59,882 bases of DNA from Blastocatellia bacterium. GTDB taxonomy: Bacteria > Acidobacteriota > Blastocatellia > RBC074. The stretch is from positions 1 through 59,882 of the forward strand of contig JBJXFI010000018.1 in the NCBI GenBank assembly GCA_046154695.1, read 5' to 3'. Position 1 is the first letter of the stretch. Each line of letters opens with the position of its first letter. Under the pieces are notes generated by a model. That model made no database searches. It had not been told where the DNA came from and was given only the letters and a program-made list of their open reading frames with translations. Made by a program: the position numbers and the translations under genes. This document shows positions 10,681-45,628 of the stretch, in pieces.

Positions 10681-10740
10681 AAAAAACTATTATCTTCGCC
10701 ACTACGTGGAGTGATGCGGAAAAGCAAATAACTTAGGCAC

Positions 10741-12050
10741 CGCGAAAAAACAACTTGAGCAATTATTTCCTGGGAGAAATTGTGTAATTCCATTCTCCAT
10801 GAAACTTGGCCTTGATTAGTTTCAGGTTTGCGAGTTCTTCGTTACTAACCACGATCCCAGTTTCATAATGGTTTGTATCGAGTGCCGCACGCACAGTCAG
10901 TCCCTTCGTCGTGGTTGTCTTGCCGATTAAGTTCACAATCACTTCGTAACTGGTCAGAGGGCGGCCACGCCAGTTTTTGGTAATAAAGCAGAATAAACGA
11001 TGTTCAATCTTGTTCCACTTACTGGTTCCAGGCGGAAAATGAGACACTTGAAGCTTCAATCCCAATTCGTCGGCCAATTCTTGCAGCGCCACTTTCCAGA
11101 GGCGCGAGCGAGATCCGTTGCTGCCGCCTCCGTCCGCTGTTATCAGCAACTGTGTCGCGCGCGGAAAACGCTCCGCCCCCATCTCTTGCCACCAACGACG
11201 AATACTGGAGCTGGCGAACCGTGCCGTATCATGGTCAATCCCCACGCTTACCCAGCCCTCGTTGCTGGCCAGATCATAGACTCCGTAAGGAATGGCCTTG
11301 CCAAGTTGAGGGTCCGGGAAGTCATGTACTTTGACTTTTTCGGGCTTCCCATGTGGCCGCCATTCCTGGCCCGCATTCTTGAATTCCCCCACCAATTCCT
11401 TCTTTTTCGTATCCACCGAGATCACTGGTTGCCACCGCTTTTGAAACGCCATGACCTGTTGGTTGATATATTCGAATTGAGCGTTGCGATCAGGATGCGA
11501 CGAGCCTTCTTGTGTCTTGCGATTGGCCTGCAAACTGTAACCGGCCAATTTCAACAACGTCGCAACCGTGCGATCGGTGACGGGATGTTGCTGCCGGCGC
11601 AACTCTTCGGCCAACTTGCGAGTGCTCTTACAACTCCAGCGCAACGGCGATTCGGGATGTCCTCGTGTGCCCGGCTCAACCAAGGCATCCAACGCTTGTT
11701 GCAATTCTGGGTCTGTCTCTATCAATGGTTTACGGCCACCGCCCGGAGCACGAATCCGGGCACGAATGGACTCTTCAGGATGTGCCAGACGATATTCCAA
11801 TTCACGTCTACCGACCAAGATCGTGTTTCGCGCCAAGCCTGTCGCATTCGACACCATCGTTGCGCCGCCACAACCCAAATCCGAAGCTTCCGTGGCGGCC
11901 CATTGCCTGCGCATTCGTTCGTCCATCATTGGCTCAAGCGCCTGATACTTTTGCCGAATTCGTTCGATCGTGGTTTCATCTTGCATGCACCCACGATCTT
12001 CTAAACGCTAAAAATAGGCAATGCGATTTTGCTCAAGTTGTTTTTTCGCG
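10741..12050 (-). mobile_element. ISAzo13-family insertion sequence with perfect 21-bp terminal inverted repeats
   Basis: CGCGAAAAAACAACTTGAGCA at 10741-10761 is the exact reverse complement of 12030-12050. It encloses a single transposase ORF. GC is visibly lower than in the flanks. No clear target-site duplication was seen. Confidence 0.85.
10763..11986 (-). CDS. ISAzo13-family DDE transposase
   Basis: 407 aa. 'IERIRQKYQALEPMMDERMRRQWAATEASDLGCGGATMVSNATGLARNTI' and 'FPPGTSKWNKIEHRLF' match the DDE_Tnp_ISAZ013 (Rhodopirellula-type) pattern from memory. Confidence 0.85.
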   Translation of the reverse strand: MQDETTIERIRQKYQALEPMMDERMRRQWAATEASDLGCGGATMVSNATGLARNTILVGRRELEYRLAHPEESIRARIRAPGGGRKPLIETDPELQQALDALVEPGTRGHPESPLRWSCKSTRKLAEELRRQQHPVTDRTVATLLKLAGYSLQANRKTQEGSSHPDRNAQFEYINQQVMAFQKRWQPVISVDTKKKELVGEFKNAGQEWRPHGKPEKVKVHDFPDPQLGKAIPYGVYDLASNEGWVSVGIDHDTARFASSSIRRWWQEMGAERFPRATQLLITADGGGSNGSRSRLWKVALQELADELGLKLQVSHFPPGTSKWNKIEHRLFCFITKNWRGRPLTSYEVIVNLIGKTTTTKGLTVRAALDTNHYETGIVVSNEELANLKLIKAKFHGEWNYTISPRK

Positions 12051-17994: not shown

Positions 17995-18004
17995 AAGGGA
18001 TCGC

Positions 18005-18150
18005 TCCAGCTTGTGCCTGGTGTGGGGTGCGCGTGAAGAGTCCGGCGGGGCGCGCGCCGGAAGGGGTCTCGTTCGAGGCCCGGTCTTTTTCCGGTAGTGT
18101 CTGATGGATGCGGCACAAGCTGGACAGCTTGTGCCACTTTTTCTGAGGAG
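18005..18150 (+). repeat. Copy A of a ~150-nt structured intergenic element (half hairpin 1 + GC stem + hairpin 2 + T-run + GAGGAG)
   Basis: Aligns by eye at roughly 85-90% identity with 26574-26731. It ends in GGCACAAGCTGGACAGCTTGTGCC-ACTTTTTCTGAGGAG, 2 nt before the ATG at 18153. Confidence 0.85.
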
Positions 18151-19194
18151 CCATGGCACAGGAACGTAAATTTCAGGTGGGCATCAACTATCCATGGATC
18201 GATTATGCATGGGATTTCGGCGATCCGCCGTCGGCGTGGGTCGGGCCGGACTACGTCGCCGAATGGCGCGCGAAGAAGCGCAGCCGGATCCGCGAGGATT
18301 TTCGGGCCTTCGCCGACCTGGGCCTGTTCGCCGTTCGCTGGTTTCTGCTGGCCGACGGATTGAGTTACGGGACCGGCGCGGAAGGACCGCGCGTCGAGGC
18401 GGGGAAGTGGACCTTTCAGCCGCTTCCCCGCGATCATTCCTTTCACAAGCAGCTCCTCGACGATTTCGCGTTCGTCCTCCAGACCTGCGCCGAGCTGAAG
18501 ATCCAGTTCGTTCCCTCGCTGATCGATTTTCACTGGTGCCATCAGGGAGGCGCCGCCGATGCGAACGGCGAGGTCATCAAGGGCGGCCGCGCCGACCTCG
18601 TTCGCGACAGGGCGAAGCACGACGCGTTCTTCGACGCGGCGCTCGAACCGCTGCTCGACATCTCCATGCGCGCGCCCGAGGCAATCTATGCGTGGGAGCT
18701 GATCAACGAGCCGGAATGGGTGACCGAGACCGCCTCGCTGATGCAGATTCGCGGCGATCCGAACAAGACCGTCTCACAGGACGAGATGCTCGCCTTCATC
18801 GCCGAGGGCATCGGGCGGATCAATCACCGCCGCCTGCCGGATGGCCGCGCGGCATTCCGGTCCACCGTCGGATTCGCGCACTGGGACGCTGTAAAAGACT
18901 GGGACTCCCCCGGTCTCGGCGTCACGCTCCATCAATTCCACTATTACGCGCCCGACCGGCGCAAGATTCCCCGGCATAGCTTCGCGCCCGAATATCCCTG
19001 TTTCATCGGCGAATTCGCCACGAAATTCCATCGGGGATGGCCCGATTTGCGAAAGGGCGATCTCGCACGGACGATCTCGGCCCGGCTCAAATGCATCGAG
19101 GAGAAGGGGTATCCGTCAGCCTTTCTCTGGTCGGCCGGAGCCGTCGATGAGGCGACCATCTGGACCGGCGCCGATCAGGACGAGACGCTCGCGT

Positions 19195-20340
<1,146 letters not shown>

Positions 20341-20390: not shown

Positions 20391-22643
20391 CTATCTCAAT
20401 AACGCATCGACCTTGGCCAGCAGCTCCTCGAAAACGATCCCGCGCTTGCTCAGGAAATCGTCGGCCCCCGACTGCAGCGCCTCGATCTTGTCCTCGAGCC
20501 CCTGGCGGCCGCCGAGCAGGATGACGGGCGTTTCGCGCTTCTCCTTGCGCAGGTCGCGGCAGATATCGAATCCAGATTGATGTTCGAGCAGCGCATCGAG
20601 GATCAGCAGTTGATAGTGGGCCGCGCGGGAGCGGGTTCGCTCCATCGCCTCCCTGCCGTCCTGCACCCGGTCGACCAGATAGTTCTCGACCTCCAGGCCC
20701 CGTTTCAGAATGGCCGCCAGCTCGTCATTGGCCACGGCGACCAGGATCCGTTCGATGGCCGGCAGCGAGGTCGTCGGCAGGCTGCCGGTGCGCCCCTTGT
20801 GCGCCATCGAGAGCCTCGCCGTGCCGGACGTCGGGGGGAGCATCGAGGTCATCGCCGCCGGCACATCCGCCAGCGTGGACGAGGCCAGCATCGCCTCGGC
20901 GCGCCGCAGATCGATCATCGCGCCGAGTTTGGCGAACTCGCGGGAGGCCTCCTCCAGATGCGCGCGCGCCGACTCGGGGCGGCTCTGGCGCAGGCGCAGC
21001 GACCCGATCGCTCCGTGGCAGACCGCCGTCCGATACGGGTCGCTGATGGTTTGAAAGATCGAAAGGCTTTGCCCAAAGGCGCGATTGGCCTCGCTCAATT
21101 CGCCGGCCTGGGTGTGGATCGTTCCCCGCGTGAAGAGCGCCCGCGCCATCAGGTTCAATGCCGGATCGAGAGAGGTCGCCGCCTCGGCGCCTTCCAGTTT
21201 CCCGCGGGCATTCGCCAGATCGGCGTTCTCCACGTGCGCAAGCGCAAGTTCGAACCCGAGCAGCACCTGCTCCTCGATCGCGCCCCGGTCGCGCGCGGCC
21301 GTCAACCCCTTCTCATACGCGTCGATCGCGGTCGATAGCTGGTGGCGCGCCTGGAGGATTCGCCCGAGGATTCGCTGCGTGCGCGCATAGATCACCGCGC
21401 CATGCCCCGCCACTGCCTGCTCGATCGATTGCCACGCGGCCGGCAGATCCCCCTGCAGCAGCTTCAATTCCGCCAGATCCGTCATCGCCACGGCTTCGGC
21501 CTTCGACAGCTTCTGTTCGCGGGCCAGCTTCAACCGATCCGCCAGCAGCCGCTCGGTCGCGGTCCAGGTTCCCAGGCGGGTCAGCACGCGGGAGAGGCTG
21601 CTGTAGCCCTTGAGCAGCAGCCGCACATTGCCGGTCTTCTCGATCATCTGGATGGCCGATTGATAAACGGGGATGGCCTCCTTCAGCCTGCCTTCGGTAT
21701 AAAGCACGAGCGCCTGCTGCAACTCGACCCGGCCCTTGAGCAGGTCGTCGCTCGTCTCCTCGGCCAACCGGGCGGCGCGGCCCCAATTGTAGCGGGCGCC
21801 CTCGAAGTCTCCTTCTTTCCACTCCACTTTTCCGAGCAGGTAATGGGACTCGGCGCGCAGGCGAACGTTGCCCGCCCGGCGCGCGGCGAGCATCGCCCGG
21901 TGCAGGTGGTCCCGCGCCGCCAGCAGGTCGCCGGCGCTGATCATCGCGCGGCCGAGCGCGGCGTGCGCGCCCGCGATTCCCGTGTCGTCGCTCTTGCCCT
22001 CGCCGGATTGCGAGAAGAAGCCCAGGCTGCGCTGCAGCGCGTCGATCGCGATCTCCATCTCCTTCCGCTCCAGATAGACGCGTCCGATGCAAAGCAGCAC
22101 GCCCGCGCGAAACGAGGGCGGAAGCGCGATCAACTGGGTCGTGTCGTTGTATTTCGAGAGCACATCCAGCGCCCGGTCAACCGCGCCCTTGTTCAAATGG
22201 GCCTCGGCCAGCACCCGGCGAAGATTGGCCTCTTCGCGGACATCCGCGTGCTGGATCTTCAATTGGCCGGTCAGGGAATGGATCAGGCCGTCGGCGCCGG
22301 CCGCCTCGTGGCGCGGCAGCAGCGGACCCGTCGCGCCTTCGGTCTCGATCAGTTGGAAGGTGATCTCCGGGCCGGCGCTGCCGAACCGGATGAGGTCGCC
22401 ATCGTTGAGCATCTGTTCCGAAATCCGGGCGCTGTTGATATAGCTTCCATTCGTCGATCCCAGATCGCGCAACATGAACCCGTTCCCCACACGGATCAGT
22501 TCGGCATGTGAACGCGACACCACCGTTTGGGGAATGCAGAGCGAATTTTCGGCGCCGCGTCCAATGGTGAATCGGGGGGATTCGAGCGGAAACGTTTGAG
22601 CTTCACCATTGAGGGTCAGATGAACTTCTCCACGCACACTCAT
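20391..22643 (-). CDS. FHA - TPR - receiver (REC) three-domain regulatory protein
   Basis: N-terminal FHA 'FTIGRGAENSLCIP..VSRSHAEL..LRDLGSTNGSYIN', central TPR-like helical repeats, C-terminal CheY-like domain 'ILVAVANDE..LLILDALL..PVILLGG..GADDFLSK'. Confidence 0.8.
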   Translation of the reverse strand: MSVRGEVHLTLNGEAQTFPLESPRFTIGRGAENSLCIPQTVVSRSHAELIRVGNGFMLRDLGSTNGSYINSARISEQMLNDGDLIRFGSAGPEITFQLIETEGATGPLLPRHEAAGADGLIHSLTGQLKIQHADVREEANLRRVLAEAHLNKGAVDRALDVLSKYNDTTQLIALPPSFRAGVLLCIGRVYLERKEMEIAIDALQRSLGFFSQSGEGKSDDTGIAGAHAALGRAMISAGDLLAARDHLHRAMLAARRAGNVRLRAESHYLLGKVEWKEGDFEGARYNWGRAARLAEETSDDLLKGRVELQQALVLYTEGRLKEAIPVYQSAIQMIEKTGNVRLLLKGYSSLSRVLTRLGTWTATERLLADRLKLAREQKLSKAEAVAMTDLAELKLLQGDLPAAWQSIEQAVAGHGAVIYARTQRILGRILQARHQLSTAIDAYEKGLTAARDRGAIEEQVLLGFELALAHVENADLANARGKLEGAEAATSLDPALNLMARALFTRGTIHTQAGELSEANRAFGQSLSIFQTISDPYRTAVCHGAIGSLRLRQSRPESARAHLEEASREFAKLGAMIDLRRAEAMLASSTLADVPAAMTSMLPPTSGTARLSMAHKGRTGSLPTTSLPAIERILVAVANDELAAILKRGLEVENYLVDRVQDGREAMERTRSRAAHYQLLILDALLEHQSGFDICRDLRKEKRETPVILLGGRQGLEDKIEALQSGADDFLSKRGIVFEELLAKVDALLR

Positions 22644-22752
22644 CGAATTGTCTCCTCTTGCCCATAAAACGCGGGGAGTATATCACCGGTCGCGCGCAAC
22701 GGGGAGGGAAGAAATCAAAAGTGCGAGGCGCTCCTCGGGATATTTTTCTTTC

Positions 22753-22780
22753 TTGACCCGAAAGGCCTTGCGGCTATAAT
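22753..22780 (+). promoter_or_regulatory. Near-consensus sigma-70 promoter (TTGACC - 16 nt - TATAAT) for the ATP-grasp cluster
   Basis: TTGACC at 22753-22758 and TATAAT at 22775-22780, about 75 nt upstream of the ATG at 22856 in the divergent intergenic region. Confidence 0.5.
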
Positions 22781-22855
22781 CGCCCCGCTGTTAATGAGTT
22801 CATCTCCACACCCCCGGAACCGACTCCGAATTAACGAACAGGACACGCAAGACGG

Positions 22856-23683
22856 ATGCCATCTTCACTTACAATAGGCGTGCTCGCGGAAGCGCGATAC
22901 CTGGTTCAGAACCAACCGACGGGTCTCTTTTCCGAGTTGCAATCGCAGGGACACGAGATCGTCCTGATCGATCCGCAGAGATCGTTTTACACGATGGGCT
23001 CGGACGCGTGGCTTGCGGGACTGGACGGAATCGTCGCGCGCGGCCGAAGCTGGGGGCTGCTCGGATTGCTCGGCTGGGCCGAGCGGGCCGGTATAAGGAC
23101 GATCAACCGCCGCGACGCGATCGCCGCCGTCCACAACAAGTCGCAGATGTCGATGGCGCTTGCGTCGAGCGGCCTGCCGATTCCCCAGACCTATTTCGGC
23201 AGCATCGCGCAGCTTGCGGCCAAGATTTCCCGCGATTGTTATCCAATCATTCTCAAACCGATCTTCGGCGATAATTCGCTCGGGCTGCTCGTCATCCCGA
23301 CGCCGGAGGAGATGGCCGCGACCGAGTGGACGGAGCCCGTGGCGCTGGCGCAGCGCTATTTCCGGACCGATGGATACGACCTAAAACTCTATGGCATCGG
23401 CGATGAGGTCTGGGTCGTGCGCAAGGTCTCGCCCTTCAACGCCGCCGAGGGGATGGACCGGTCGCGGGAGGGGCTCGTCGAGGCGACGCCGGAGCTGCGG
23501 GACCTCGGGCGCCGCTGCGGGCGGCTCTTCGGGCTGGACCTGTACGGCGTCGATTGCATCGAGACGGCCGACGGCGTCCTGATCATCGAGATCAACGACT
23601 ATCCCAACTACACCAACGTGCCGGCGGCAAACGCGCTGCTGGCGGAGTATGTCGTTGGCCGCTGCCGGAGCGATGCCTCGTGA
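22856..23683 (+). CDS. ATP-grasp enzyme, divergent paralogue 1 (RimK/ITPK-like)
   Basis: 'YPIILKPIFGDNSLGLLVI', 'DLKLYGIGDEVWVVRK', 'LYGVDCIETADGVLIIEINDYPNYTNVP'. Its N-terminal half is more RimK-like than in paralogues 2-4. Confidence 0.75.
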   Translation: MPSSLTIGVLAEARYLVQNQPTGLFSELQSQGHEIVLIDPQRSFYTMGSDAWLAGLDGIVARGRSWGLLGLLGWAERAGIRTINRRDAIAAVHNKSQMSMALASSGLPIPQTYFGSIAQLAAKISRDCYPIILKPIFGDNSLGLLVIPTPEEMAATEWTEPVALAQRYFRTDGYDLKLYGIGDEVWVVRKVSPFNAAEGMDRSREGLVEATPELRDLGRRCGRLFGLDLYGVDCIETADGVLIIEINDYPNYTNVPAANALLAEYVVGRCRSDAS

Positions 23684-23687
23684 GCCT

Positions 23688-24491
23688 ATGAAGATCGGGA
23701 TCATCACAAAACGGGAGAAGGCCACAAAATCGGGGTCGGTCATGCAGGAGGCGGCCGGAATTCTGCAATCGCGGGGCTGCGAGTGCGGGATGATCTATCC
23801 CGAGGACGGACGCATCGAGATCGCGGCGGTCCGAGCGGACTGCGATCTCTATCTGCTCAAATCCGGCACGGAGGCCGCGCTCTCGCTGGCGGGCGTGCTC
23901 GATTCGATGGGGGCGCGCATACTCAATCCGTATCCCACCGTCATCGCCATGCGCGACAAGGTCGTCTCGACGCGCAAACTGCTCTCGGCGGAGGTTCCGC
24001 TGCCCGAGACCTGGTTCGCCGCGAAGCCGGGCGACCTGGCCGATCTGCTTGCGGATGGTCCGATCGTCGTCAAGCCTTTCTGGGCGGCCTCGCAGGGGCG
24101 CGGTGTGCGAGTGATCCGCGAGGCGCGGGAACTCGCGTCCCTCGATCCGGTCGAAGATCTGCTCTTCGCGCAGCGATACAATCCGCCCGACGGCCGCGAC
24201 CACAAGCTCTATGTCATCGGGGAGCAGGTCTTCGGCGTCCGCCGCGTCTGGCCGCCAAAAACGCTCGAGGACAAGCTCGGCGAACCCTTCGAGGTTCCCG
24301 GCGAGATGCGGGAGATCGCGCTCCGCTGCGGCCGCGCCTTCGGCGTCGGCCTTTACGGCGTGGATCTGATCACCAGCGGCGGACGCTCCTACATCGTCGA
24401 TCTCAACACCTTTCCCGGATTCAAGGGCGTCCCCGATGCCGCATCGTTGTTGGCCGATTTCATTTTGAAAACATCCATTGAAAACATCTGA
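23688..24491 (+). CDS. ATP-grasp enzyme, ITPK1-like (inositol polyphosphate kinase family) paralogue 2
   Basis: 'CDLYLLKSGTE', 'ILNPYPTVIAMRDKVVS', 'HKLYVIGEQVFGVRR', 'LYGVDLITSGGRSYIVDLNTFPGFKGVP'. ATG lies 4 nt after the preceding stop. Confidence 0.7.
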   Translation: MKIGIITKREKATKSGSVMQEAAGILQSRGCECGMIYPEDGRIEIAAVRADCDLYLLKSGTEAALSLAGVLDSMGARILNPYPTVIAMRDKVVSTRKLLSAEVPLPETWFAAKPGDLADLLADGPIVVKPFWAASQGRGVRVIREARELASLDPVEDLLFAQRYNPPDGRDHKLYVIGEQVFGVRRVWPPKTLEDKLGEPFEVPGEMREIALRCGRAFGVGLYGVDLITSGGRSYIVDLNTFPGFKGVPDAASLLADFILKTSIENI

Positions 24492-24500
24492 GGTGAATGA

Positions 24501-25343
24501 ATGAAACTTCATTTTATGGTTGTCCGCCGGGTGCCGCCGGTTCCCAGCCCGGTGCTGGTCGAGTGCTACGAGATTTTGCGCGGACGCGGATACACGGTCA
24601 CCGAGGACATCGCCGAGGAGATTCTGCAGCGCCCCGATCTGCTGACGATCGACGCCGACCTCTATCTGCTCAAGTCTCACACGGAGCTCTCGCTCGCGAT
24701 GGCCGGCGTGCTGCACACGCAGGGCGCGAACATGCTCAACCCCTATGAGTCCTGTTCGCTGATTCAGAGCAAGATCATCACATCGAAGCTGCTGCGGGAG
24801 GCCGGGATTCCCGCGCCCGATTCGTGGGTGACCAATGATCTGAGCATGGCCAAATCGCTGCTCGAAAAACATCCGCTGATCATCAAGCCGCACATGGGGC
24901 ATCGCGGCGCGGGCGTCAGTCTTTGCCGGACGCCGGAGGAGATCGACCGGATCCCCGCGCCCGTCACCCCGATGATCATCCAGGAAGCGATTCCCGGGCC
25001 GGGCGAGGACCTCAAGATCTATTGCGTCGGCGATCAGGTGCAGGGCGTGCGGAAGCAGTTCTCCGAGTCCAGTTTCTCGGTCGCCGGCCGCCACGGCGAG
25101 ATCACCGAGGAGGTGCGCCGCATCTCGCAGCGCGTCGGCGAAGTGTGCGGCCTCGGTTTGTACGGCCTCGACATCATCGAAAGCGATCGCGGGCCCTATG
25201 TCGTCGATGTCAACTATTTTCCCGGCTACAAGGGCGTGCCGAACGCCGCCGGGCTGATCGCCGACTATATCGATCAGTACGCCAAAGGCCGCGTGACGCT
25301 GACGCCGCCGGTTCCCGGGGCCGCGCGCGTGGCCGCGAGCTGA
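24501..25343 (+). CDS. ATP-grasp enzyme, ITPK1-like paralogue 3
   Basis: '[11 protein letters not shown]', '[18 protein letters not shown]', '[15 protein letters not shown]', '[28 protein letters not shown]'. Confidence 0.7.
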
Positions 25344-25351
25344 ATGCCACG

Positions 25352-26572
25352 ATGAGCCAATCCCAGGAAGAAGCGGTGCGGGAGTCGAAGGCTTCCAGAA
25401 ACGCGGTGCTGGTTCTGCTGCTGGAAGGCTTTCTCTCCCGGCTGAGCTTCTCGGTTCTCGGGTTCGCGCTTCCGCTCTTTGCATACCGCCGGTTGGGGTT
25501 GAGTCTGACCCAGACGGGGTTTCTCTTCTCGGTCAACCTGATGTCGGAGCAGCTCTTCAAGCCGCTGATGGGCTGGGTGGCGGATCGCGCGGGGGTGAAG
25601 CGGATCTTCACGGCGTCGATTGCGCTGCGCAGCCTGGTGGCATTGCTGCTGGTCTTCGCCGGCGCGCCCTGGCAGGTGTACGCGATCCGGTTTTTGCATG
25701 GATTCGCGGAATCGCTGCGCGATCCCTCGGTTGCGGTGCTGATCGCGGTGAATGCGCGGGAGACGCGGCTCGCCTCGACCTTCGGCTGGTACACGACGGC
25801 GAAGCAGTCGGCCGGCTCGATCGGCGCCGCCCTGTGCGGGCTGTTGCTGGCCGCGACCGGGGACCGCTATGACGTGGCCTTTGCCGCGGGCTTTGTTCTT
25901 TCGCTTGCCCCCCTGTTCGCGGTCGCGCGATACCTGGAGGAACCGGCCCGCCATTCGGGCCCCGCCCCGGGGCCGCCCGCTTCCGCGGCGCCTTCAGGAG
26001 AGGCGGGGAAAAAAGAGAAGAGCGGGCTTTTGCCGATCGTCATCTTCGGGTTTTTGAGCGCGTGCACCGCGCGGATGATCACCCAGTTCTTTCCCATCCT
26101 GGCGATTGAATATGGCGGATTGAGCACGGCGCAGACGAGCCTGATCTATGCCGTCTCGCTCGTCATTCTGATCGGGGCCGGACCCCTCTTCGGCTGGCTG
26201 TCGGACAATGTCAGCCGGAAAATGGTTCTGATGGTTCGGGGCATCGCCAGTACGATCTCGTCGGCGTGCTTCTATTTCTTTCCCACGCTGCCCGGATTGG
26301 CCGCGGGGAACGTTCTCGATTCCCTGGGCAAGGCCGCCTTCCGGCCCGCCTGGGGCGCGATGATGGCCCGCGTCGCCCGGCTGAACCCGCGGCGACGGGC
26401 GCGAACGATGAGTTATTTGAGTCTCGGCGAGGGGCTCGGAGAGACCCTCGGGCCGATTCTGGGCGGGTTTCTGTGGAGCACCTGGGGCATCGGCGCCATG
26501 CTCGGCGCCCGCGTCGCCCTGGCGCTGCTCGGAGAGGTGTACGCCGTGATTGTGGCGCGAACCGATCAATAG
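25352..26572 (+). CDS. MFS transporter (12-TM type)
   Basis: ATG at 25352, 8 nt after paralogue 3. '[52 protein letters not shown]'. Paralogous to the C-terminal domain of the 29255-32410 protein. Confidence 0.85.
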
Positions 26573-26573
26573 C

Positions 26574-26731
26574 GGCACAAGCTGTCCAGCTTGTGCCGGG
26601 TGTAAGGGTGCGCGTGAAGAGTAGGGCGGGTCGCGCGCCGGAAGTCGTCTCGTTCGAGGCCTGGTTTTTTTCTGAGAGTGTCTGGCGGAGGCGGCACAAG
26701 CTGGACGGCTTGTGCCACTTTTTCTGAGGAG
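26574..26731 (+). repeat. Copy B (complete) of the ~150-nt structured intergenic element
   Basis: GGCACAAGCTGTCCAGCTTGTGCC (26574-26597), GC stem GGTGCGCG..CGCGCGCC, CTCGTTCGAG mini-hairpin, second hairpin GGCACAAGCTGGACGGCTTGTGCC, then ACTTTTTCTGAGGAG 6 nt before the ATG at 26738. Confidence 0.85.
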
Positions 26732-26737
26732 AATGAA

Positions 26738-27583
26738 ATGCGAATCTGTTTTTTGATGGAGCCGCCGCGAAGCAACACGTCGGTGACCTATGAAGTGTTG
26801 AGCGGATTGCAGGCGAGCGGGGCGGAGGTGGAGGTGGTCACCGAGCGAAGCGGGCTGATCGACCTGCAGAATTTCAGGTTCGATTACGATGTGTATCTTT
26901 TCAAGTCGCATTCGCCGCTGGCCGAGAGCCTGGCGGCCGCGGCCCATTTTCGCGACGCGCGGCTGCTGAACGAGTATCCGGCGACGATGAAGGTTCGGGA
27001 CAAGGTGCTGACCTGCACGATGCTGCTCCAGGCGGGCATTCCCACGCCGCGCACCTTCGTCACCGATGCGATCGAGACGCTGCGCCCGGCCGTGCGCGAG
27101 ATGCCGATCGTCGTCAAGCCCTATCGCGGCCGCCGCGGCATGGGAATCGAGGTCTGCATGGATGAGGCCCAGTTCGACGCGCTGGTCCGGCGCCGCGAGG
27201 GAGCCGCCGTGGCCGATCTCGACGAGGGGGGCGAGGACGGCACGGCCCTCGGCGATCGCCTGATCTTCGCGCAGGAGTACGAAGAACACGAACCCTACGA
27301 TTACAAGGCCTATGCCATCGGCGATTACGTCCACGCCATCAAACGCATCTTCCCGGCGAAAACCAAGGAAGAGAAACTCGGCGTTCCGGTCGGCGAGGAC
27401 CCGGAACTCGAAGATCTGGTCCGGCGCTGTGGAAAACTTTTCGGGCTGCAGCTCTATGGCGTCGATCTCGTGAAAACGCCAAAAGGCTATTCGGTGATCG
27501 AGGTCAACTGCTTTCCGGGATACAAGGGCGTTCCCGAGGGCGGCGCCCGCATTTCAAACTTTATCCTCGAACATGTCCGGTGA
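26738..27583 (+). CDS. ATP-grasp enzyme, ITPK1-like paralogue 4
   Basis: '[11 protein letters not shown]', '[17 protein letters not shown]', '[18 protein letters not shown]', '[15 protein letters not shown]', '[28 protein letters not shown]'. Confidence 0.7.
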
Positions 27584-27747
27584 CAGGCAACAGATGGTTC
27601 GGCGAGCTTCATCGAAGGAGCCGTTTTATTGACACCCCTTGCTCGGATTGCCCTGGATCAGACGATTAACACTCAAGGGGCCTGATGAGAAAGCTGTATA
27701 AATTGGCTGTTGAGCAGGCTGGAGATTATTTTGGAGGAACATAGACT

Positions 27748-29106
27748 ATGGCTTCGGGATTGAAATCTTGGACACCCCTGGCGATTCTGCTTATCGCGGG
27801 GGTTATTTCATTGGCGCTTATTTCGGAATCGGCTTCGGCCCATTTCACCTTCCTGGACGCGTTTTCGTCCGAAAAGGAGAAGAAAGACAAGAAAGAGAAG
27901 AAGTCGAAGAGCAAAGTCGACGACGATGATGACGACGATGACGATCAGGACAAGGAGCAAAAGAAGCGGGAGAAAGAGGAGAAGAAGCGGGCCGAGAAGG
28001 CCGCGAAGTCGAAGATGAAGTCCGAGCCGGAGGCGGCCTCGGGGGTGGCGATCGCGTCAACTGAAAGGGCGGGCGAGAAGGCGGAAAAGACGGCAGCGAA
28101 GAAGGCCGAAGCCCGGGCATTGGCGGGTCCGTCGGCGGCCGCGATTGCGGAGCCGTTGGAAGCGGTCTTCGCGGTGGTGGAGACCGATCCCGTTCCGCAC
28201 GGCGGGGACGCCGCCGATGATCCCGCCATCTGGATTCATCCGAAAGATCCGTCCCAGAGCACCATCATCGGCAGCGACAAGCAGGGCGGCCTCGCCGTCT
28301 ATGACCTGAGCGGCAAACAGATTCAGTATCTCTCCGACGGATTGATGGACAACGTGGACCTCCGGGACGGCTTCACGCTCGGGGGCGAAAAGGTCGCAAT
28401 CGTCACGGCGAGCAATCGGAAAGACAACTCCATCGCGATCTACAAGGTCAACGCCGCGACGCGAAAGCTCGAACCCGCCGCGGCCCGCGTGGTCAAGCAC
28501 GGCATGACGGTTTACGGCATGTGTATGTATCGGAGCGGGAAATCCGGGAAATTCTTTTATTTCGGAACCAGCAAATCGGGCGATGTCGAACAGTACGAGC
28601 TCTTCGACAATGGCGGCAAGGTGGATGTGAGGAAGGTCCGCAGCTTCAAGCTCGGATCGGTCGTCGAGGGCTGCGTCGCAGATGATGAACTGGGCCATTT
28701 CTACATCAGCGAGGAGGCGGTGGGAATCTGGAAATACGGCGCGGATCCGGATGCGGGCGCGGAGCGCGTCCAGGTCGACAAGGTCGGCGGCCATTTGAAG
28801 GCCGATGTCGAAGGACTGGCGATCGCGTACGGTCCCGACGGGAAGGGATATCTGATGGCCTCCAGCCAGGGGGACTATTCGTTTGTCGTCTACCGGCGGG
28901 AAGGCAATAACGAGTTTGTCCGGAAGTTCCGGATCGGCGACGGCGCGGGGGTCGATGGCGCGGAAGAGACCGACGGAATCGATGTGACGACGGCCAGCCT
29001 GGGGCCCGCGTTCCCGAATGGCCTCTTCGTCGTGCAGGACGGGTTCAACGACAAGGGCAACCAGAACTTCAAACTCGTTCCCCTGCAGGCGATCGTCAGG
29101 CCGTAA
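27748..29106 (+). CDS. Secreted beta-propeller phytase (3-phytase, BPP family) with K/E/D-rich N-terminal extension
   Basis: Signal/TM '[18 protein letters not shown]'. '[83 protein letters not shown]' fits the Bacillus PhyC-type phytase pattern. GGAGGAAC SD. Confidence 0.8.
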
Positions 29107-29122
29107 CCCGCGGCAGCGAACA

Positions 29123-29219
29123 GGGAGGAGACACGGAATAGACGGAAAGAGCGGAATCAACGGGCCCGAAATCGCGGGCTGCCGGTTGTTCCGTTAATTC
29201 CGTCTATTCGTTTTCTCCC
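29123..29219. repeat. ACGGAA-type imperfect palindromic element, copy I
   Basis: GGGAGGAGACACGGAATAGACGGAAAGAGCGGAATCAACGG .. CCGGTTGTTCCGTTAATTCCGTCTATTCGTTTTCTCCC. The arms are reverse complements with a few mismatches. Confidence 0.8.
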
Positions 29220-29254
29220 ATCTCATTGAGAGACAATTTCGGAGGACGTCACGC

Positions 29255-32200
29255 GTGAAACGATGCCCGGTTTGCAATCGTGAAATGCCCGATACCAAGA
29301 AGTTCTGTGATCGGGATGGGGCGGCGCTCGTTGCGATCGAGCCGGCGCTGCTGCCGCGGCTGATCATCCGGGCGCCGGAGGGCGGGGAGCGGGACATGGC
29401 GATCATCTCCGCGATCTCGACCATCGGGAAGACGCCGGACAACGGCATCGTCGTCACGGATGGCGCGATCAGCCGGAAGCATGCGCAGATCGAGCAGCGG
29501 GATGGACAGTATCTCCTCAAGGATCTGGGAAGCCTGAACGGGACGTTTTTGAATGGGCAGCGGCTCGATTCGCGGGAGCAGCCGCTGAAGGACGGCGATG
29601 AGATCGTGATCGGGCGGACGCGCATGCTGTTTCGGCTGCTGCCCGATATGTCGCAATTCGCGACGGTCGAAAACGACCCGCAGCGGGGACAGGAGCCTCC
29701 GCCTCGATTGACGAGCGTCATTGAGACGCCGCGGCCGCCGGTTCCCGCGCCGGCGCCTCCGGCGAAGCCCGCGGCGCCTCCTCTACAGCCGCCTCCGCAA
29801 TTGGCGCCGAAAGCGCCGCCTCCGCCTCCGCAATTGACGCCGAAACCCGTGCCTCCGGCGCCGCCGCGGATCACGAATCCGGCGATTCCGGAGGGGAAAC
29901 GTCCGGAATATAAGGTGGCGCTGACCGGCGAACTGGTCGTGCCCTCGTCCGCGGCGACCCTGACGGGAGACTCCGGGCCGATCATTCTCGACGGCCGGTA
30001 TGAACTCGAAAAACGAATCCTGCAGGATGCGACCGGGACGCTCTATCGCGCGCGACGAGTGTTGCTGAATGACCGCGTCTCGATTCGGGTGCTGCGGCCG
30101 GAGCTGGTGGGCGAGGAGACCGCGGTCGAGCGGTTTCGCCGCCAGGCGCAGGTCGCCGCGCTGATCCGGCATCCCAATTCCGTGCAGGTCTACGACTTCG
30201 GCTATTCGCCCGAGGGGGCGGCCTATATCGTCGAGGAACTGATCTCGGGCAGGACGCTGCGGGATCTGATTCGCAAAGAGCGGGGGCTGAGCCTTGCGCA
30301 CGTCGTCGGCCTGTTCAATCAACTCTGCGGCGCGGTGCACGCAGCCCATCTGAGCGGGATCATGCTCCGCGATCTGCGGCCGGAGATGATCTATGTCGAG
30401 ACCGACCCGAGCGGCGGCGAACTGATCAAGGTCGGGGGATATGCGCTGGCCAAGATGGAGGGAGCGGGCGCGAGGGAAAAGTCGCTGACCGGTCCCATCG
30501 GCGTGTATGGCCTGCCGCAATACGCCTCTCCCGAACAATTGTTCAATCGGCCGCTGGACGCGCGATCCGATATCTATTCGCTGGGCGTGATCCTGTATGA
30601 GCTGCTCACCGGGACTGTCCCGTTCGACTCCGAGAACGAGAACGAGCTGCTGACGATGCACATGTATTCGTCCGTTCCCGATCTCACCGAGATTGGGCGG
30701 AGCGACCTGGATGAAGGCGTTGCGGCCGTCGTCAACCGGGCGCTGGATCCGTCCCCCAACAGGCGCCAGGCCTCCGCGCTGCAGCTCGCGGAAGAGCTGC
30801 AGGCCGTCTCCGGCGTGGGCGGCAACCCGCTCAGTCAGATGGTCTCGAAAGTCACGGGGCTGCTCTCTTTCCCGCATCTGGTGATCCCGCCGAAGATCCA
30901 GCCTTCGGCGGGGGAACAGGCGCTGCCGTCGGTTCTGCCCGAGGTCCGGGAACAGGGGAAGGGCGCATTCAATCCGGTGGTGATGGCGCTGATGGCCGAG
31001 GCCTTTCTGTCGCGCCTCTCAAGCGGAATGATCAAAACGGCCGTTCCGCTCTATGCGCTGCTGGTCTTCGGAATGAAGATCACTTCGGTCATGGCGCTGG
31101 TGCTGGTTCAGAACATCGTTCCGCTGCTGCTGCGGCCGGTCTTCGGATCGCTGGCCGACAAGCACGGCAAGAAACGGGTCTTTATGGTCTCGCTCACCAT
31201 CCGGACGCTGGTGGGCGTGCTCTATGCGGTCGCTTCGCTGCCGATGCTCTATTTCGTCAGTCTCGTTCGCGGAATCGCGGACTCGGCCAAGGGGCCGTCG
31301 GCCTCCGCAATGATCGCCGACAACACCGATGAGAAGAGCATCGCGCAGGCCTATTCCTGGTACACGACGACCAAATCGACCTCCGGCGGCATCGGCGAGG
31401 CGCTTGCGGCCTTCGTTCTGACGGTGCTGATCGCGGTCTATGCGGGCACGCAGACGGTCAACGTCAATTTCGCGGTCACCGACAAGGTCACGCGCTCCGG
31501 CGCGGGCGCGGAGGAGATCGTCAAGGATCCCGCGCGGATTCGCGTGGGACAGCCGCTCCCCGGCGCCGAGAGCGATCCGGCCGCGCCCAGGGTGGTGCGC
31601 GTCGAGCAGCGCGCGATGCGCCTCGGCGATGTCCCGATCGAGGACCTGCCGAAGGTCGTCGATTCGCCCCCGCTGCGAAAGGCCCTGGTCGCCATCTTTC
31701 TCATCGCCACCGTCTTTTCGCTCGGCTCGCTGATTCTCGTCGCGGTCTTCATCAAGGAAAAGAAGAAAGAGAAGAAAGAGAAGAAGGAGAAGGGCGCGCT
31801 CACCGGGCGGCTCGATGCGCCGCTGGAACAACCGAATATCTGGCTCTTCGCCCTGCTCGGGACCGCGCTGACCGCGCCGGCCTATATGGTCACCGGGGAG
31901 TTCTTCACGATTCTCGCCGTCAAACTCGAGGTCACGCCCTCCTCTCTCGGATGGATCAAGATTCTCGCCGAGACGGCCGTGCCCCTGCTCTTCGGGCCCT
32001 TCTTCGGATGGCTCGCCGATCGCATCGGCGCCGGCCGGGTGATCGCGCTGCGATCCATCGCCAATATGCTCACCTCGGCCCTCTTCTGGATCGTTCCCTG
32101 GTTTGCCGGAACCGCGCTGCTGGGCCTGATGATGGGCGTCGCCCGCGCGATCGACGAAGTCGGCAAGGCCGCTTTCAAGCCGACATGGGGCGCCATCGCC

Positions 32201-32410
32201 GCCAAGGTCTCCAGTTTCAATCTTTCGGCCCGCAGCCGGACCATGGGCATTCTCGAAGGCGGCGTCGACGCCTCCGACCTCGTCTTCCCCGTCGTCGCCG
32301 GCATGCTTTTACAGTATCTGTCGCTCGGGCCGCTGATGCTCGTCCGCGCGATGCTCGCCGTCGCGGCCGAGATTTACGGCTTCCTGCTTATGCGCAAATA
32401 TAAAATCTGA
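29255..32410 (+). CDS. Fusion protein: zinc ribbon - FHA - degenerate Ser/Thr protein kinase-like domain - MFS transporter
   Basis: '[19 protein letters not shown]'. FHA '[30 protein letters not shown]'. Pro-rich linker. Hanks-type fold '[72 protein letters not shown]'. From about aa 570 an MFS domain paralogous to 25352-26572. Confidence 0.85.
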
Positions 32411-33237: not shown

Positions 33238-33485
33238 GGGTGTATTGAAGTTCTTTTGCCTCAACCCGCAAAGCGGGTGGCAGCATATAGCCTGGGGTGA
33301 AGGCGAAGCCAGAACCCCAGGGTTGGTAAAAACCGTTGTCAAGCCCGTGAAACGGGCGACAGCGAACGCTCTGCCGCCCGTTTCACGGGCTTGCGAGCGT
33401 TTTCGATGCGGTCCTGGGGCTTACGCCCCAGGCTATATGCTGTCGCCTGCTTCGCAGGCTGCAAAAATCGAATTTCAAAACACCC
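33238..33485. repeat. ~250-bp compound imperfect palindrome made of nested small hairpins (MITE-like or structured RNA)
   Basis: Symmetry centre near 33365. AAGCCCGTGAAACGGGCG (33341-33358) pairs with 33375-33392 (18/18). CAGCATATAGCCTGGGG (33281-33297) pairs with 33426-33442 (17/17). Outer GGGTGT..TTGAA pairs with TTCAA..ACACCC. Confidence 0.8.
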
Positions 33486-34324: not shown

Positions 34325-35068
34325 TCATTTCTTGCCCCACGGCATGAGCACCGATTTGTACCAATCGGTCACCGCCTTGATCTTGTACTGCTGGATGGCC
34401 CCCGCAGGATCGACGTTCTTCGGGCAGGCTTTCGTGCATTCTCCGTTGAAGGTGCAGCCCCAGATGCCGTCGTGCTGGGAAAGGATGTCGAGGCGCTCCT
34501 CGGCCCCCTGATCGCGGGAGTCCTCGTTATAGCGCTGCGCCAGCGCGATGGCCGCCGGCCCGATGAAATGCGGATCCAGCCCGACGACCGGGCACGCGGC
34601 GTAACAGCACAGGCAGTTGATGCACATGCTGAACTGTTTGTAGTTGTCCATCTCCCGGGGCGTTTGCAGGTATTCGCCTTCCGAGATCGGCTTCTCTTCC
34701 TGGCGGACGATCCACGGGTTGACGCTCTTCAGCTTGTTGATGAAATCGGTGATCTCCACGACCAGGTCGCGAACGATCGGAAAGTAGCGCAGCGGCTCGA
34801 TGCGAATCGGCCCCGGCGCATAGTGTGTCAGGAAGGTGGCGCAGGTGAGCTTCGGCTCCCCGTTGACCATCATCCCGCAGCTCCCGCAGACGCCCATCCG
34901 GCAGCTCCACCGAAACGAAAGCGATCCGTCCAGCCTGTCCTTGACGTAATTGAGCGCGTCGAGCACCACCCAGTCTTTATTGAGGGGCACCTCGAACCGC
35001 TCGAACGCGGGCTCCGCTTCCTGCTCGGGCCGGTAACGCGCGACCTCGAGAGTGATCGTTTCAGCCAT
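34325..35068 (-). CDS. frdB: Fumarate reductase iron-sulfur subunit
   Basis: Cys clusters '[15 protein letters not shown]' (2Fe-2S), '[12 protein letters not shown]' and '[12 protein letters not shown]'. Confidence 0.9.
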
Positions 35069-35074
35069 CTATCC

Positions 35075-36820
35075 TCACTTTCCATACACCCGCTCGGCGG
35101 GTGGCCATCGGGTAATCGTGACGGGCAGATACTCCACCCGCGATGTGCCGTCGTCGTTGCGGTAGACCATAGAGTGGCCCAGGAACTTCTCGTCGTCCCG
35201 CGCGGGGAAGTCCGTTCGCTGGTGCGAGCCGCGCGATTCCCTGCGATCGAGCGCGCAGGCGATGATCGTCTCGGCCACATCGAGCATATACGAAAGCTCC
35301 AGCGCCGCCGTCAGCTCGGTGTTGAACGTGTGGCTGTGGTCGCTGATGGCGACATTCCTGAACCGCTCCTGCAATTTGCCGATCGCGTCGGAAGCCGTGG
35401 CCAGGGAGTCGTGCGTGCGGTAAATCCCCGCGCCGTCCTCCATCGCCTTCTGCATCGCCGACCGGATGTCGGCGATGCTCTCGCGGCCGTCCGTTTTATG
35501 GAGGAACGTCCCTTCCACCCGGCGCTTCTCATCCAGGGCCTGCGCAAGGATCCGCGCCGTGTTTCCGTCCTTCTGCTCCGAGGCGAACACGGCGGCGGCC
35601 TCTCCCGCGCGCCGCCCGAAGACCAGCAGCTCGGTCAGCGAATTCGACCCCAGCCGGTTCGCGCCGTTGATGCTGACGCAGGCCGCCTCGCCCGCGGCAT
35701 ACAACCCCCGGATCGGCGTCGCCGCGTTGATGTCGGTGTGAACGCCGCCCATCATGTAATGCACGACAGGGCGCACCGGAATCATCTGTTTGGCCGGATC
35801 GATGTTCTCGTATTTCAGGCAGAGCTCGCGAACGAACGGGATCTTGGCGTTGATCTTCTTCTCGCCCAGGTGCCGAATGTCGAGGTAAACGACGTGGCCG
35901 TATGGCGTTTCAATGGTGCGCCCTTTTTCGAACTCCTTGACGAAGGCCTGCGACAGCCGGTCGCGCGGCCCCAGCTCCATCGAGCGGAGCACGGGCGTCG
36001 GCTCCGGTTTGCCCAGGCTGTAATCCTGCAGATACCGGTAGCCGTCCTTGTTGAGCAGCCACCCGCCCTCGGCGCGCGCGGCCTCCGTGATCAGAATGCC
36101 GGTGAAGGGCAGCCCCGTCGGATGGTACTGGACGAATTCCATGTCCTTGAGCGGCACCCCCACGCGATACGCCAGCGACATCCCGTCCCCGCACTTGATG
36201 TTGGCGTTGGTCGTGAACGGAAAAACCTTTCCGCAGCCGCCGGTCGAAATGATCACCGATTTGGCCAGGATCGTCTGTATCCGGCCGCTCATCAACTCGA
36301 TGGCGACCACGCCGCGCGCCTGCCCGTCGTCCACCAGAATCTTTGTGACGAACCACTCGTCATACCGATTGACGCCGGTGTATTTGAGCGAGGTCTGGTA
36401 GAGCGTGTGAAGCATGTGGAAGCCCGTCTTGTCGGCGGCGAACCACGTGCGCTCATTCTTCATTCCGCCAAAAGGGCGCACCGCGACCCGGCCATCCGGC
36501 TCGCGGCTCCACGGACAGCCCCAATGCTCGAGCTGCAGCAGCTCTTTCGGCGCTTCCCTGACGAAATACTCGACCGCGTCCTGGTCGCACATCCAGTCGC
36601 CGCCCGAGATCGTGTCGTAGCAATGCTCGTCCAGCGTGTCGTTGGGTTTGATGACGCCGGCGGCGCCGCCTTCGGCCGAGACCGTGTGGCTGCGCATCGG
36701 ATACACCTTCGAAACGACGGCGATGTTGAGTTTCGGATTGAATTCGGAGATGGCAATGGCCGCGCGCAGACCCGCCCCACCACCGCCGATCATGAGAACA
36801 TCGTGGAAAGAGACATCCAT
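35075..36820 (-). CDS. frdA: Fumarate reductase flavoprotein subunit
   Basis: '[15 protein letters not shown]', FAD-histidyl motif '[10 protein letters not shown]', 'HYMMGGV', 'RLGSNSL'. Confidence 0.9.
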
Positions 36821-38090: not shown

Positions 38091-38807
38091 ATGGCGGCTT
38101 CGGCGCAACGTCTGGAAAGCTCAGCGGCAGGACTGCTCGCGCGCCTGTGGCAATCCTCGGTAGGCAAGAAGTATGTAATGGCGGTGACGGGCCTGGGGTT
38201 ATGGCTCTTCGTCATCATTCATCTGCTGGGAAATTTGCAGGTCTTTCTGCCGCCGGGCGTGATCAACAACTATGCCCACACGCTCAAGGCGAACCCCGTG
38301 ATCCTGTGGGGCGCGCGGGCGGGTCTGCTGGCGACGGTGGGGCTCCACATCACGGCGGCGATTCAATTGGCGATCGCGAACCGGCGCGCGCGGCCCATCG
38401 GCTACGCGGCGGGCAAGCCGGTGGAATCCTCCCTCGCGCAACGAACGATCGTTGTGAGCGGACTGGTGATTCTCGCCTTCATCCTCTTCCATCTCTCGCA
38501 TTTCACGATCGGCCTGGTCGATCCCGGACTGCTCGCGCTCCGGGATCCGCAAACCGGCTATCACGACGTTCATAAAATGATGGTCATGGGATTCTCGAAT
38601 CTCTATTTCGCGGGATTCTATATCCTCTCGATGGGGCTTTTAATGTTTCATCTGAGCCACGGCGTCAGCAGCCTCTTTCAATCGCTGGGGCTGCGAAGTA
38701 AAAAGACGCACCGCTTTTTTCACATGGTCGCGCATCTGGTTGCCATTGCGATATTTATCGGCAACTGCTCGATTCCGCTGGCGATTATGGCGGGGAGGAT
38801 CAAATGA
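38091..38807 (+). CDS. sdhC: Succinate dehydrogenase/fumarate reductase cytochrome b subunit (b558-type single anchor)
   Basis: Five predicted TM helices with conserved His ('[13 protein letters not shown]', 'LHITAAI', 'LFHLSHF', 'MFHLSHG'). AGGAGG SD 5 nt before the ATG at 38091. Confidence 0.8.
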
Positions 38808-38883
38808 ACGCCCCGCGGCGACGGGCAAAAGACTCATCGCAAGGTTTTCTTCCGGGGCGGAGCAGGCACTTCCATTATTCGTT

Positions 38884-40806
<1,923 letters not shown>

Positions 40807-40986
40807 TTCGTGACGTTGTAGCGACATTCGGCCAGTACGTTTCAGTCGGCAGTCAGCGGTCGTTTGCTGAAGGTTCCCGGCGCGCGCCGGAGAACACTAT
40901 ACTTGCTTGTGACGGTAGGCGAATCGCTGGCTGCCGGAAACCTCTCTTCACGGAATCGATCCGTGCGACACTATTCAGGAGCAGGA

Positions 40987-41739
<753 letters not shown>

Positions 41740-45586: not shown

Positions 45587-45628
45587 GGAAAAAGTGGCAC
45601 AAGCTGTCCAGCTTGTGCCACCATGCTT
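45587..45628. terminator. Bidirectional terminator-like hairpin; third (hairpin-only, inverted) copy of the GGCACAAGCTG element
   Basis: GGCACAAGCTGTCCAGCTTGTGCC at 45596-45619, between convergent genes. The minus strand reads hairpin + ACTTTTTCC. The plus strand has CTTTT 8 nt downstream. Confidence 0.55.

Follow-up and report, generated by a model that had tools for sequence, protein, structure and literature searches.

A conserved row of bacterial ATP-grasp paralogues, intermediate between RimK/LysX-type ligases and ITPK kinases, in a Blastocatellia genome

The contig JBJXFI010000018.1 of a Blastocatellia bacterium, a soil acidobacterium (assembly GCA_046154695.1), hereafter the window at its full length of 59,882 nucleotides, carries four genes for ATP-grasp proteins, G1 to G4 (paralogues 1 to 4, P1 to P4). 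They form a row with a transporter of the major facilitator superfamily (MFS), and a mannitol-1-phosphate 5-dehydrogenase-like enzyme is encoded nearby on the opposite strand. The four proteins belong to a family that stands between the RimK/LysX ligases and the ITPK kinases, and that recurs with the same partners in several bacterial phyla. The genes and features of the region are the following (ORF, open reading frame).

19195-20340, - strand: mannitol-1-phosphate 5-dehydrogenase-like enzyme, 381 amino acids (Pfam Mannitol_dh N and C domains)
20391-22643, - strand: FHA, TPR and response-regulator receiver protein, divergent from G1 (profile scan)
22753-22780, + strand: candidate sigma-70-like promoter TTGACC-16-TATAAT, upstream of G1 (consensus match only)
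22856-23683, + strand: G1, ATP-grasp, 275 amino acids (ORF and profile scans)
23688-24491, + strand: G2, ATP-grasp, 267 amino acids from the ATG at 23688 (alternative start 23649)
24501-25343, + strand: G3, ATP-grasp, 280 amino acids (ORF and profile scans)
25352-26572, + strand: MFS transporter, 406 amino acids, directly 3' of G3 (Pfam MFS_1, 3e-41)
26570-26735, no strand: repeat element of about 150 nucleotides with palindromic ends, between the MFS gene and G4 (sequence comparison)
26738-27583, + strand: G4, ATP-grasp, 281 amino acids with a 20-residue acidic insertion (ORF opens at 26678)
27748-29106, + strand: beta-propeller phytase family protein (Pfam PF02333, 7.6e-106)
29255-32410, + strand: FHA, Ser/Thr kinase and MFS fusion protein, 1051 amino acids (profile scans)

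As the preliminary description of this DNA had stated, G1-G4 are paralogues, and clear ones, with pairwise BLASTP E-values of 1e-27 to 1e-51 and identities of 27-39%. All four frames lie on the + strand. That description also placed three of them in tandem, whereas the MFS gene and the repeat separate G3 from G4. The promoter candidate matches 11 of 12 consensus positions and is the only such site in 22500-29400, a region for which shuffled sequence averages 1.0. An antisense frame of 630 amino acids crosses G2 and G3 (23592-25484, - strand); its GC content by codon position, together with the conserved genes of the + strand, marks it as a high-GC artefact and no gene.

In Pfam, all four proteins exceed the gathering score of the ITPK family PF05770 (29.5-43.3 bits, cut-off 23), and no PF05770 match at E <= 0.01 is obtained with the controls, RimK of E. 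coli and LysX of Thermus, which bears out the ITPK-like signature noticed earlier. However, the match is limited to the last ~60 residues (model positions ~130-200 of 201), whereas human ITPK1 reaches 298 bits over positions 1-200. The N-terminal domain of the ITPKs, PF17927, which human ITPK1 matches at 4.3e-36, finds no counterpart in P1-P4 at E <= 0.01, and either RimK or ATPgrasp_ST outscores PF05770 in each window protein. Pfam RimK covers model positions 2-177 of 188 with 31-60 bits (cut-off 21), against 284 bits for genuine RimK and 107 bits for LysX; human ITPK1 itself matches this model only at E 0.0025. The top NCBIfam models are rimK_fam, LysX and MptN, all far below their cut-offs (65-90 bits against 143.4 for rimK_fam, TIGR00768; 65-78 against 275.6 for LysX, TIGR02144). 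The G1 orthologues also match LysX_preATP_grasp weakly (25 bits, under the cut-off of 27).

The structural comparisons give the same order. In a PDB sequence search RimK (1e-14) and LysX (2e-12) precede ITPK1 (8e-6, C-terminus only). The AlphaFold2 models of G2 and G3 are confident (pLDDT 95.3 and 94.9), and with them Foldseek finds ArgX, LysX and RimK closest in the PDB (TM 0.77-0.83, E ~1e-19), with ITPK1 appearing first at rank 13 for G2 and rank 29 for G3 (TM 0.69-0.73, E ~1e-16 to 4e-17). For G2 alone the values are TM 0.81-0.83 for LysX/ArgX and 0.71-0.73 for ITPK1. G1-G4 share with RimK, LysX, ArgX, MptN and CofF their best overall similarity, their size, and the Asn and Asp-Lys motifs of the linker region. 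With the ITPK1 family (human, plant and Entamoeba enzymes, and Lokiarchaeal LcIKA-D) they share the three-domain ATP-grasp fold, but they are shorter (267-281 against ~320 amino acids) and lack the ITPK insertions.

Profile-profile comparison places the family between the two. An alignment of 118 G1-G4 orthologues was compared with ITPK (human and potato) and with RimK (E. coli and P. aeruginosa); the family matches ITPK at E 2.6e-26 and RimK at E 3.8e-31, whereas ITPK and RimK compared directly reach only E 0.0023 and a probability of 12.5%. The hhalign probabilities against ITPK are 97-99.7%. Since the family is close to both while these barely detect each other, it forms a bridging clade that is genuinely intermediate, with the RimK/LysX ligases on one side and the ITPK kinases on the other. 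The proposal that the paralogues are ITPK1-family members does not hold as worded: RimK, LysX and MptN lead the profile matches, an outcome that the preliminary description had itself set against its proposal, no ITPK N-domain is found, and the closest structures are ArgX, LysX and RimK. G1-G4 are not to be filed as ITPK1-family.

The intermediate position can also be read from single motifs. The four sequence blocks first reported for G2-G4 needed some correction: blocks 1 and 3 are exact, block 2 has a spacer of 6 instead of 10, and block 4 fits G3 and G4 with a spacer of 5 instead of 6, G2 being without its internal Gly. G1, described as more divergent, fits none of the four patterns. The human ITPK1 motifs used for comparison are correct against the sequence of PDB 2ODT/2Q7D, and the plant motif DINYFPGY is found in potato ITPK1 as IDINYFPGY. 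The residues that bind ATP and Mg are intact in G1-G4: K129 and D224 are invariant, and D236 (or Glu) and N238 are conserved, in alignments of 80 and 118 sequences and in all four window proteins. The C-terminal ITPK motif D-x-N-x-F-P-G-[YF], which binds Mg and substrate, is at least 90% conserved in the G2 and G3 orthologue groups. Among the G4 orthologues the FPG core reaches at least 90%; the window protein also has the aromatic residue, which varies more across the group. The G1 orthologues carry the variant N-D-[FY]-P-N-Y-T. G1 is the most RimK-like, with RGRS in place of LKSH and NDYPNYT in place of NxFPGYKG.

The NxFPG[YF] motif is common to ITPKs and missing from the controls RimK (NASPGLEG) and LysX (NHTMEF). 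Conversely, three signatures of the ligases are altered in the family: D-I-R of RimK/LysX is D-x-K, the [ST]-N-x-x-x-G-G loop (FRSNLHRGG in RimK, ITNTARGG in LysX) is not conserved and has no conserved Asn, and N-[ST]-[ST]-P-G of RimK is N-x-F-P-G. In human ITPK1 the most conserved contacts to the inositol phosphate are H167, K199 and R212, with further contacts from K18, K59, H162 and G301 (PMC6900528). By alignment, K199 corresponds in the family to an almost invariant K172, where RimK and LysX have the Arg of D-I-R, and G301 corresponds to G242, the Gly of FPG, which is not common to RimK/LysX. K59 corresponds to K58 in G2-G4 and to Arg in G1, with Arg in RimK. G1 retains an Arg at the position of RimK R64. 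R212 corresponds to K185 or Arg, with Arg in RimK/LysX. The two histidines, at positions that are non-basic in RimK/LysX, are replaced in part: H162 is His in G3 and Arg in G4, and H167 is Arg in G1/G2 and Ala or Gln in G3/G4. K18 maps approximately to a conserved Arg in G3.

Gene context was counted by tblastn of the window proteins, or of defined domains, against 84 related loci. The core shared between phyla reads G1-G2-[MtlD-like]-G3-MFS, with all genes on one strand. Three or four paralogues, each with its orthologues, keep the same order from phylum to phylum. A G1 orthologue leads the operon in 44/44 Acidobacteriota-type loci and in 17 of the 20 loci of other phyla, and the MFS gene follows G3 in 46/47 and 19/21 loci. 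The mannitol-1-phosphate-dehydrogenase-like enzyme and the MFS transporter are near-universal partners; in other phyla the dehydrogenase gene shares the strand of G2 and G3 and is placed between them, in contrast to its divergent position on the - strand of the window. In high-GC genomes stop and start codons overlap along the operon, indicating translational coupling, and these coupled operons have no small ORF for a carrier, a precursor or a LysW-like protein between G1, G2, the dehydrogenase, G3 and MFS. Near G1-G4 no gene for an S6- or LysW-type substrate was found, and none of the genes in the operons examined encodes an amino-acid-related enzyme, a carrier protein or a precursor peptide.

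Other components are confined to one lineage. G4 is found in 41 of 44 Acidobacteriota-type loci and in 0/17 loci of other phyla, the FHA-kinase-MFS fusion in 34/34 against 1/10, the FHA-TPR-receiver protein in 28/32 against 0/9, and an NHL 'Phytase-like' propeller in 14/34 against 0/11. The beta-propeller phytase that the preliminary description had reported does adjoin G4, but the link drawn from it is restricted to 27/32 Acidobacteriota-type loci, against 0/9 adequately covered loci in other phyla. The phytase, G4 and the FHA-kinase-MFS fusion are additions to the module specific to Blastocatellia.

Gene fusions tie the core together. Mannitol_dh is fused to G3 (P0121, P0122, P0170 and L076:1730-3961, 743 amino acids), and G3 is fused to MFS in a single 771-amino-acid frame without internal stop (L073:9977-12292). 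G3 is the core enzyme of the family. A tandem ATP-grasp protein also occurs (P0146), and in a minority of genomes the ATP-grasp domain is joined to an inositol-monophosphatase-family (IMPase) domain (P0166, L081) that scores about equally with HisN, CysQ and SuhB models. By architecture only, the latter recalls PPIP5K, in which an ATP-grasp kinase domain for inositol pyrophosphates shares one polypeptide with a phosphatase domain (PMC8024741); its phosphatase is, however, a histidine acid phosphatase and not of the IMPase family. The locus of a metagenome-assembled Solirubrobacterales genome (L073:6557-14399) combines two G2-like ATP-grasps with the G3-MFS fusion, and its dehydrogenase is replaced by an HddA-like heptose-7-phosphate kinase (1.5e-90), a GmhA-like isomerase (1.7e-60) and a split transketolase. 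Here the sugar-phosphate supply module is exchanged around a constant ATP-grasp/MFS core.

The dehydrogenase of the window matches the NCBIfam mannitol-1-phosphate 5-dehydrogenase model (PRK02318) end to end at 2e-71, and PDB 3H2Z at 6e-55. It scores 241 bits against an equivalog cut-off of 368, so that its substrate may differ. The pairing of a full-length MtlD-like enzyme with a transporter is also seen in mannitol catabolism via MtlD, but in the operon no component of a phosphotransferase system (PTS) was seen, and the place expected of a kinase or PTS is taken by ATP-grasp enzymes.

The phytase is assigned to its family by sequence (PF02333, model positions 23-353 of 375), its activity being predicted, and it scores 256 bits with the NCBIfam phytase-like phosphatase model, under the cut-off of 440; a look-up of its exact sequence returned no record. 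Its N-terminus consists of a hydrophobic segment followed by a Lys/Glu/Asp-rich low-complexity linker of ~90 residues, including a run of nine Asp, before the propeller. In one related locus (L003) an NHL/Phytase-like propeller occupies the phytase slot. The FHA-kinase-MFS fusion begins with a Cys-rich segment, followed by FHA, the Ser/Thr kinase and a full MFS domain into which a long stretch is inserted. The MFS half is a paralogue of the operon MFS (35-36% identity), and the protein may act as a transporter-like sensor.

Taken together, it is very probable that G1-G4 act serially on a sugar-alcohol or sugar phosphate, with G3 coupled to the dehydrogenase and the transporter, and that the link to phytase is lineage-specific. 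Because the dehydrogenase and the transporter are partners across phyla, the substrate is likely a hexitol or sugar phosphate and not phytate-derived inositol phosphates. The chemistry proposed here is more tentative: G1-G4 would work in succession as ITPK-like kinases, with a hexitol phosphate as substrate. The dehydrogenase would reduce fructose-6-phosphate to mannitol-1-phosphate, which G1, G2 and G3 (and G4 in Blastocatellia) would then phosphorylate one after the other with ATP, each at a different hydroxyl, to yield a multiply phosphorylated hexitol. G3 would perform the step coupled to the MFS transporter, and the latter would carry either the product or one of its precursors through the membrane. 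In Blastocatellia, secreted propeller phosphatases of the phytase type would hydrolyse such esters outside the cell, the MFS-Ser/Thr-kinase fusion could sense the compound, and an FHA/receiver regulator would be added. What we infer is which scaffold is used, that the enzymes are kinases and not ligases, in which order the steps follow and which way the transporter works.

A kinase function is plausible, and it is favoured because the family has active-site features of the ITPKs that RimK/LysX lack, because all partner enzymes handle polyol or sugar phosphates and none amino acids, and because the operon contains no carrier or precursor gene. Serial phosphorylation at different positions is suggested by the three or four paralogues kept in fixed order. 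The phytase-type phosphatases that adjoin the operon in Blastocatellia also favour a kinase, as does the parallel with the Lokiarchaeal ITPK homologues, of which four paralogues surround inositol-phosphate synthase genes (PMC6900528). In both layouts clustered paralogues accompany an enzyme converting a hexose phosphate into a polyol monophosphate. However, the partner of G1-G4 is the mannitol-1-phosphate-dehydrogenase-like enzyme and not inositol-phosphate synthase, and their kinase activity is predicted.

The kinases could also serve catabolism, with uptake of the polyol, its phosphorylation and its oxidation to fructose-6-phosphate. Taken alone, the G3-MFS-dehydrogenase trio is explained more simply in this way, but this leaves no role for G1, G2, G4 and, in the variant operon, the HddA-like kinase, and the biosynthetic version accounts for more genes.

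Several observations weigh against the kinase reading. Overall, sequences, profiles and structures match best with the ligases RimK, LysX/ArgX and MptN, and the RimK scores of hhalign exceed the ITPK scores for all four groups. G3 and G4 pass the cut-off of Pfam ATPgrasp_ST, the 'sugar-transfer associated ATP-grasp', whose members are reportedly predicted amidoligases, and a distant relative (P0235) appears fused to a region that is glycosyltransferase-like as judged by eye only. The weak best PDB matches of the operon MFS are the exporters QacA and NorA (E 2e-5); a transporter like the drug/H+ antiporters is an odd carrier for a polyphosphate ester, and the export of phosphorus is costly in soil. 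Three of the basic positions of ITPK are also Arg in RimK, so that a basic pocket cannot separate kinase from ligase chemistry, and the pocket was judged from hhalign/MAFFT alignments only. Nearly all bacterial ATP-grasp enzymes characterised so far are ligases, and a multiply phosphorylated hexitol is not known from nature.

The main alternative, somewhat less likely than the kinase reading, is that G1-G4 are carboxylate-amine (or carboxylate-hydroxyl) ligases of the RimK/LysX type, which would serially couple amino or other acids to a sugar-alcohol phosphate. The phosphate of this scaffold may be stripped last by a phosphatase of the IMPase type, and the MFS may export the product as an osmolyte, a metallophore or a signal; the pairing of an ATP-grasp ligase with an MFS exporter is familiar from BacD/BacE of bacilysin. 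This alternative draws on the ranking of profiles and structures, with Pfam RimK matching over the whole domain, on the weak likeness of the MFS to exporters, and on the ATPgrasp_ST and P0235 matches. It is weakened, however, by rimK_fam and Pfam RimK scores far under those of true family members, by the Lys that replaces the Arg of D-I-R, and by the lack of conservation of the [ST]-N-x-x-x-G-G and N-[ST]-[ST]-P-G motifs. The scaffold enzymes, moreover, yield compounds without carboxylate or amine, and the operon is without an amino-acid-related enzyme, a carrier protein or a precursor peptide.

The reading given in the preliminary description, that the paralogues are true ITPK1-type kinases or phosphotransferases on inositol phosphates, for example freed from phytate by the adjoining phytase and imported by the MFS, is very unlikely. 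The ITPK-like motifs and the PF05770 matches are consistent with it, as are the phytase or 'Phytase-like' NHL propeller in the same slot of Blastocatellia loci and the fusion of an ATP-grasp to an inositol-monophosphatase-family domain. However, this domain is about equally close to HisN, CysQ and SuhB, the ITPK profile covers only ~60 residues without a detectable ITPK N-domain, and the adequately covered loci of other phyla have no phytase beside the near-universal dehydrogenase. No inositol-phosphate synthase or iol genes were found among the window ORFs scanned, and there is no evident reason to re-phosphorylate imported inositol phosphates.

There is only a slight chance that the family modifies the C-terminus of a protein or carrier, as RimK does on S6 or LysX on LysW, the target possibly being the transporter or a regulator. 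The closest structures, LysX/ArgX with LysW and RimK, and the weak LysX_preATP_grasp match of the G1 orthologues point in this direction, but the coupled operons have no LysW-like or other small gene, the RimK/LysX signature motifs are missing, and the family is fused to a sugar-phosphate dehydrogenase and a phosphatase. A role in the synthesis of graspetides, a class of ribosomally synthesised and post-translationally modified peptides, was rejected, there being no precursor gene and the PsnB-type ligases being structurally farther (TM ~0.66).

The repeat between the MFS gene and G4 is 88% identical to a second copy at 18000-18155 and is bounded by palindromes of ~24 nucleotides (GGCACAAGCTGGACAGCTTGTGCC); a third site, at 45594-45621, consists of the palindromic end alone. 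Both full copies stop just short of a gene's ribosome-binding site and start codon, the gene being a frame of 358 amino acids in one case and G4 in the other. The element folds strongly (z -4.9), has no match in Rfam and was not found in any of the 84 related loci. It looks like a genome-specific insertion resembling miniature inverted-repeat transposable elements or repetitive extragenic palindromes, and it may influence the expression of G4. The 358-amino-acid frame (18153-19229, + strand) is without Pfam or NCBIfam match and adjoins the MtlD-like gene in ~8 related loci.

Elsewhere in the window, an Rfam Acido-Lenti-1 small RNA match lies at 33413-33460 (+ strand; 40.8 bits, gathering score 37), which agrees with an acidobacterial origin of the window, and an ISAZ013-family DDE transposase at 10763-11986 (- strand; PF07592, 7.7e-145), within a stretch of lower GC (0.56 in 10001-12000). 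Two gene sets of the succinate-dehydrogenase/fumarate-reductase type lie a few kilobases apart (34325-36820, - strand; 38740-41739, + strand). The second was profile-scanned, giving a flavoprotein (38740-40806) and an iron-sulphur subunit (40864-41739), and the first was read from ORF translations.

The family is widespread. Its signature had been described as rare in bacteria, which does not hold: the family comprises 1024 protein clusters at E <= 1e-5, and 98, 658 and 2839 clusters at 50% identity for E <= 1e-30, 1e-10 and 1e-3, respectively. A scan of the GTDB species-representative genomes with a 15-sequence alignment found at least 498 genome stretches that encode a relative, in about eight phyla. 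The hosts include Acidobacteriota (mainly Blastocatellia), Chloroflexota, Actinomycetota, Gemmatimonadota, Rokubacteria, Eisenbacteria, Myxococcota and Proteobacteria; one related locus (L053) belongs to a Chloracidobacterium metagenome-assembled genome. A literature search found no description of this ATP-grasp family or operon, and nothing relevant on bacterial ITPK homologues, on ATP-grasp enzymes in mannitol-1-phosphate or heptose/GmhA clusters, or on a mannitol kinase. The fold and the superfamily are already known; the G1-G4 clade is uncharacterised.

The prevailing view assigns ITPKs to eukaryotes and Asgard archaea, and how they arose within the ATP-grasp superfamily is unclear. The bridging family is a concrete candidate for the evolutionary link between RimK and ITPK. 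In a further, unlikely extension, the clade would be the bacterial sister or source of the ITPKs and would make multiply phosphorylated polyols (hexitol, heptose, possibly inositol) in abundant dry-soil bacteria, namely Blastocatellia, Chloroflexota, Solirubrobacterales, Gemmatimonadota and Rokubacteria. If so, a bacterial polyol-polyphosphate pathway would run parallel to the inositol-phosphate route of eukaryotes and Asgard archaea. It would be a candidate microbial source of the organic phosphomonoesters of soil, the origin of which is still unclear (PMC5984642), and in Blastocatellia the secreted phytase-type enzymes and the MFS-kinase sensor would manage their turnover and sensing.

Whichever chemistry applies, the partners (a polyol-phosphate dehydrogenase, IMPase, heptose-phosphate enzymes and a transporter) point to an undescribed sugar-alcohol phosphate pathway in major uncultured soil phyla. 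If G1-G4 are ligases, the operon would encode a new class of exported sugar-alcohol conjugate. If they are kinases, bacteria would possess a soluble polyol-polyphosphate chemistry of their own, with consequences for the cycling of phosphorus in soil.

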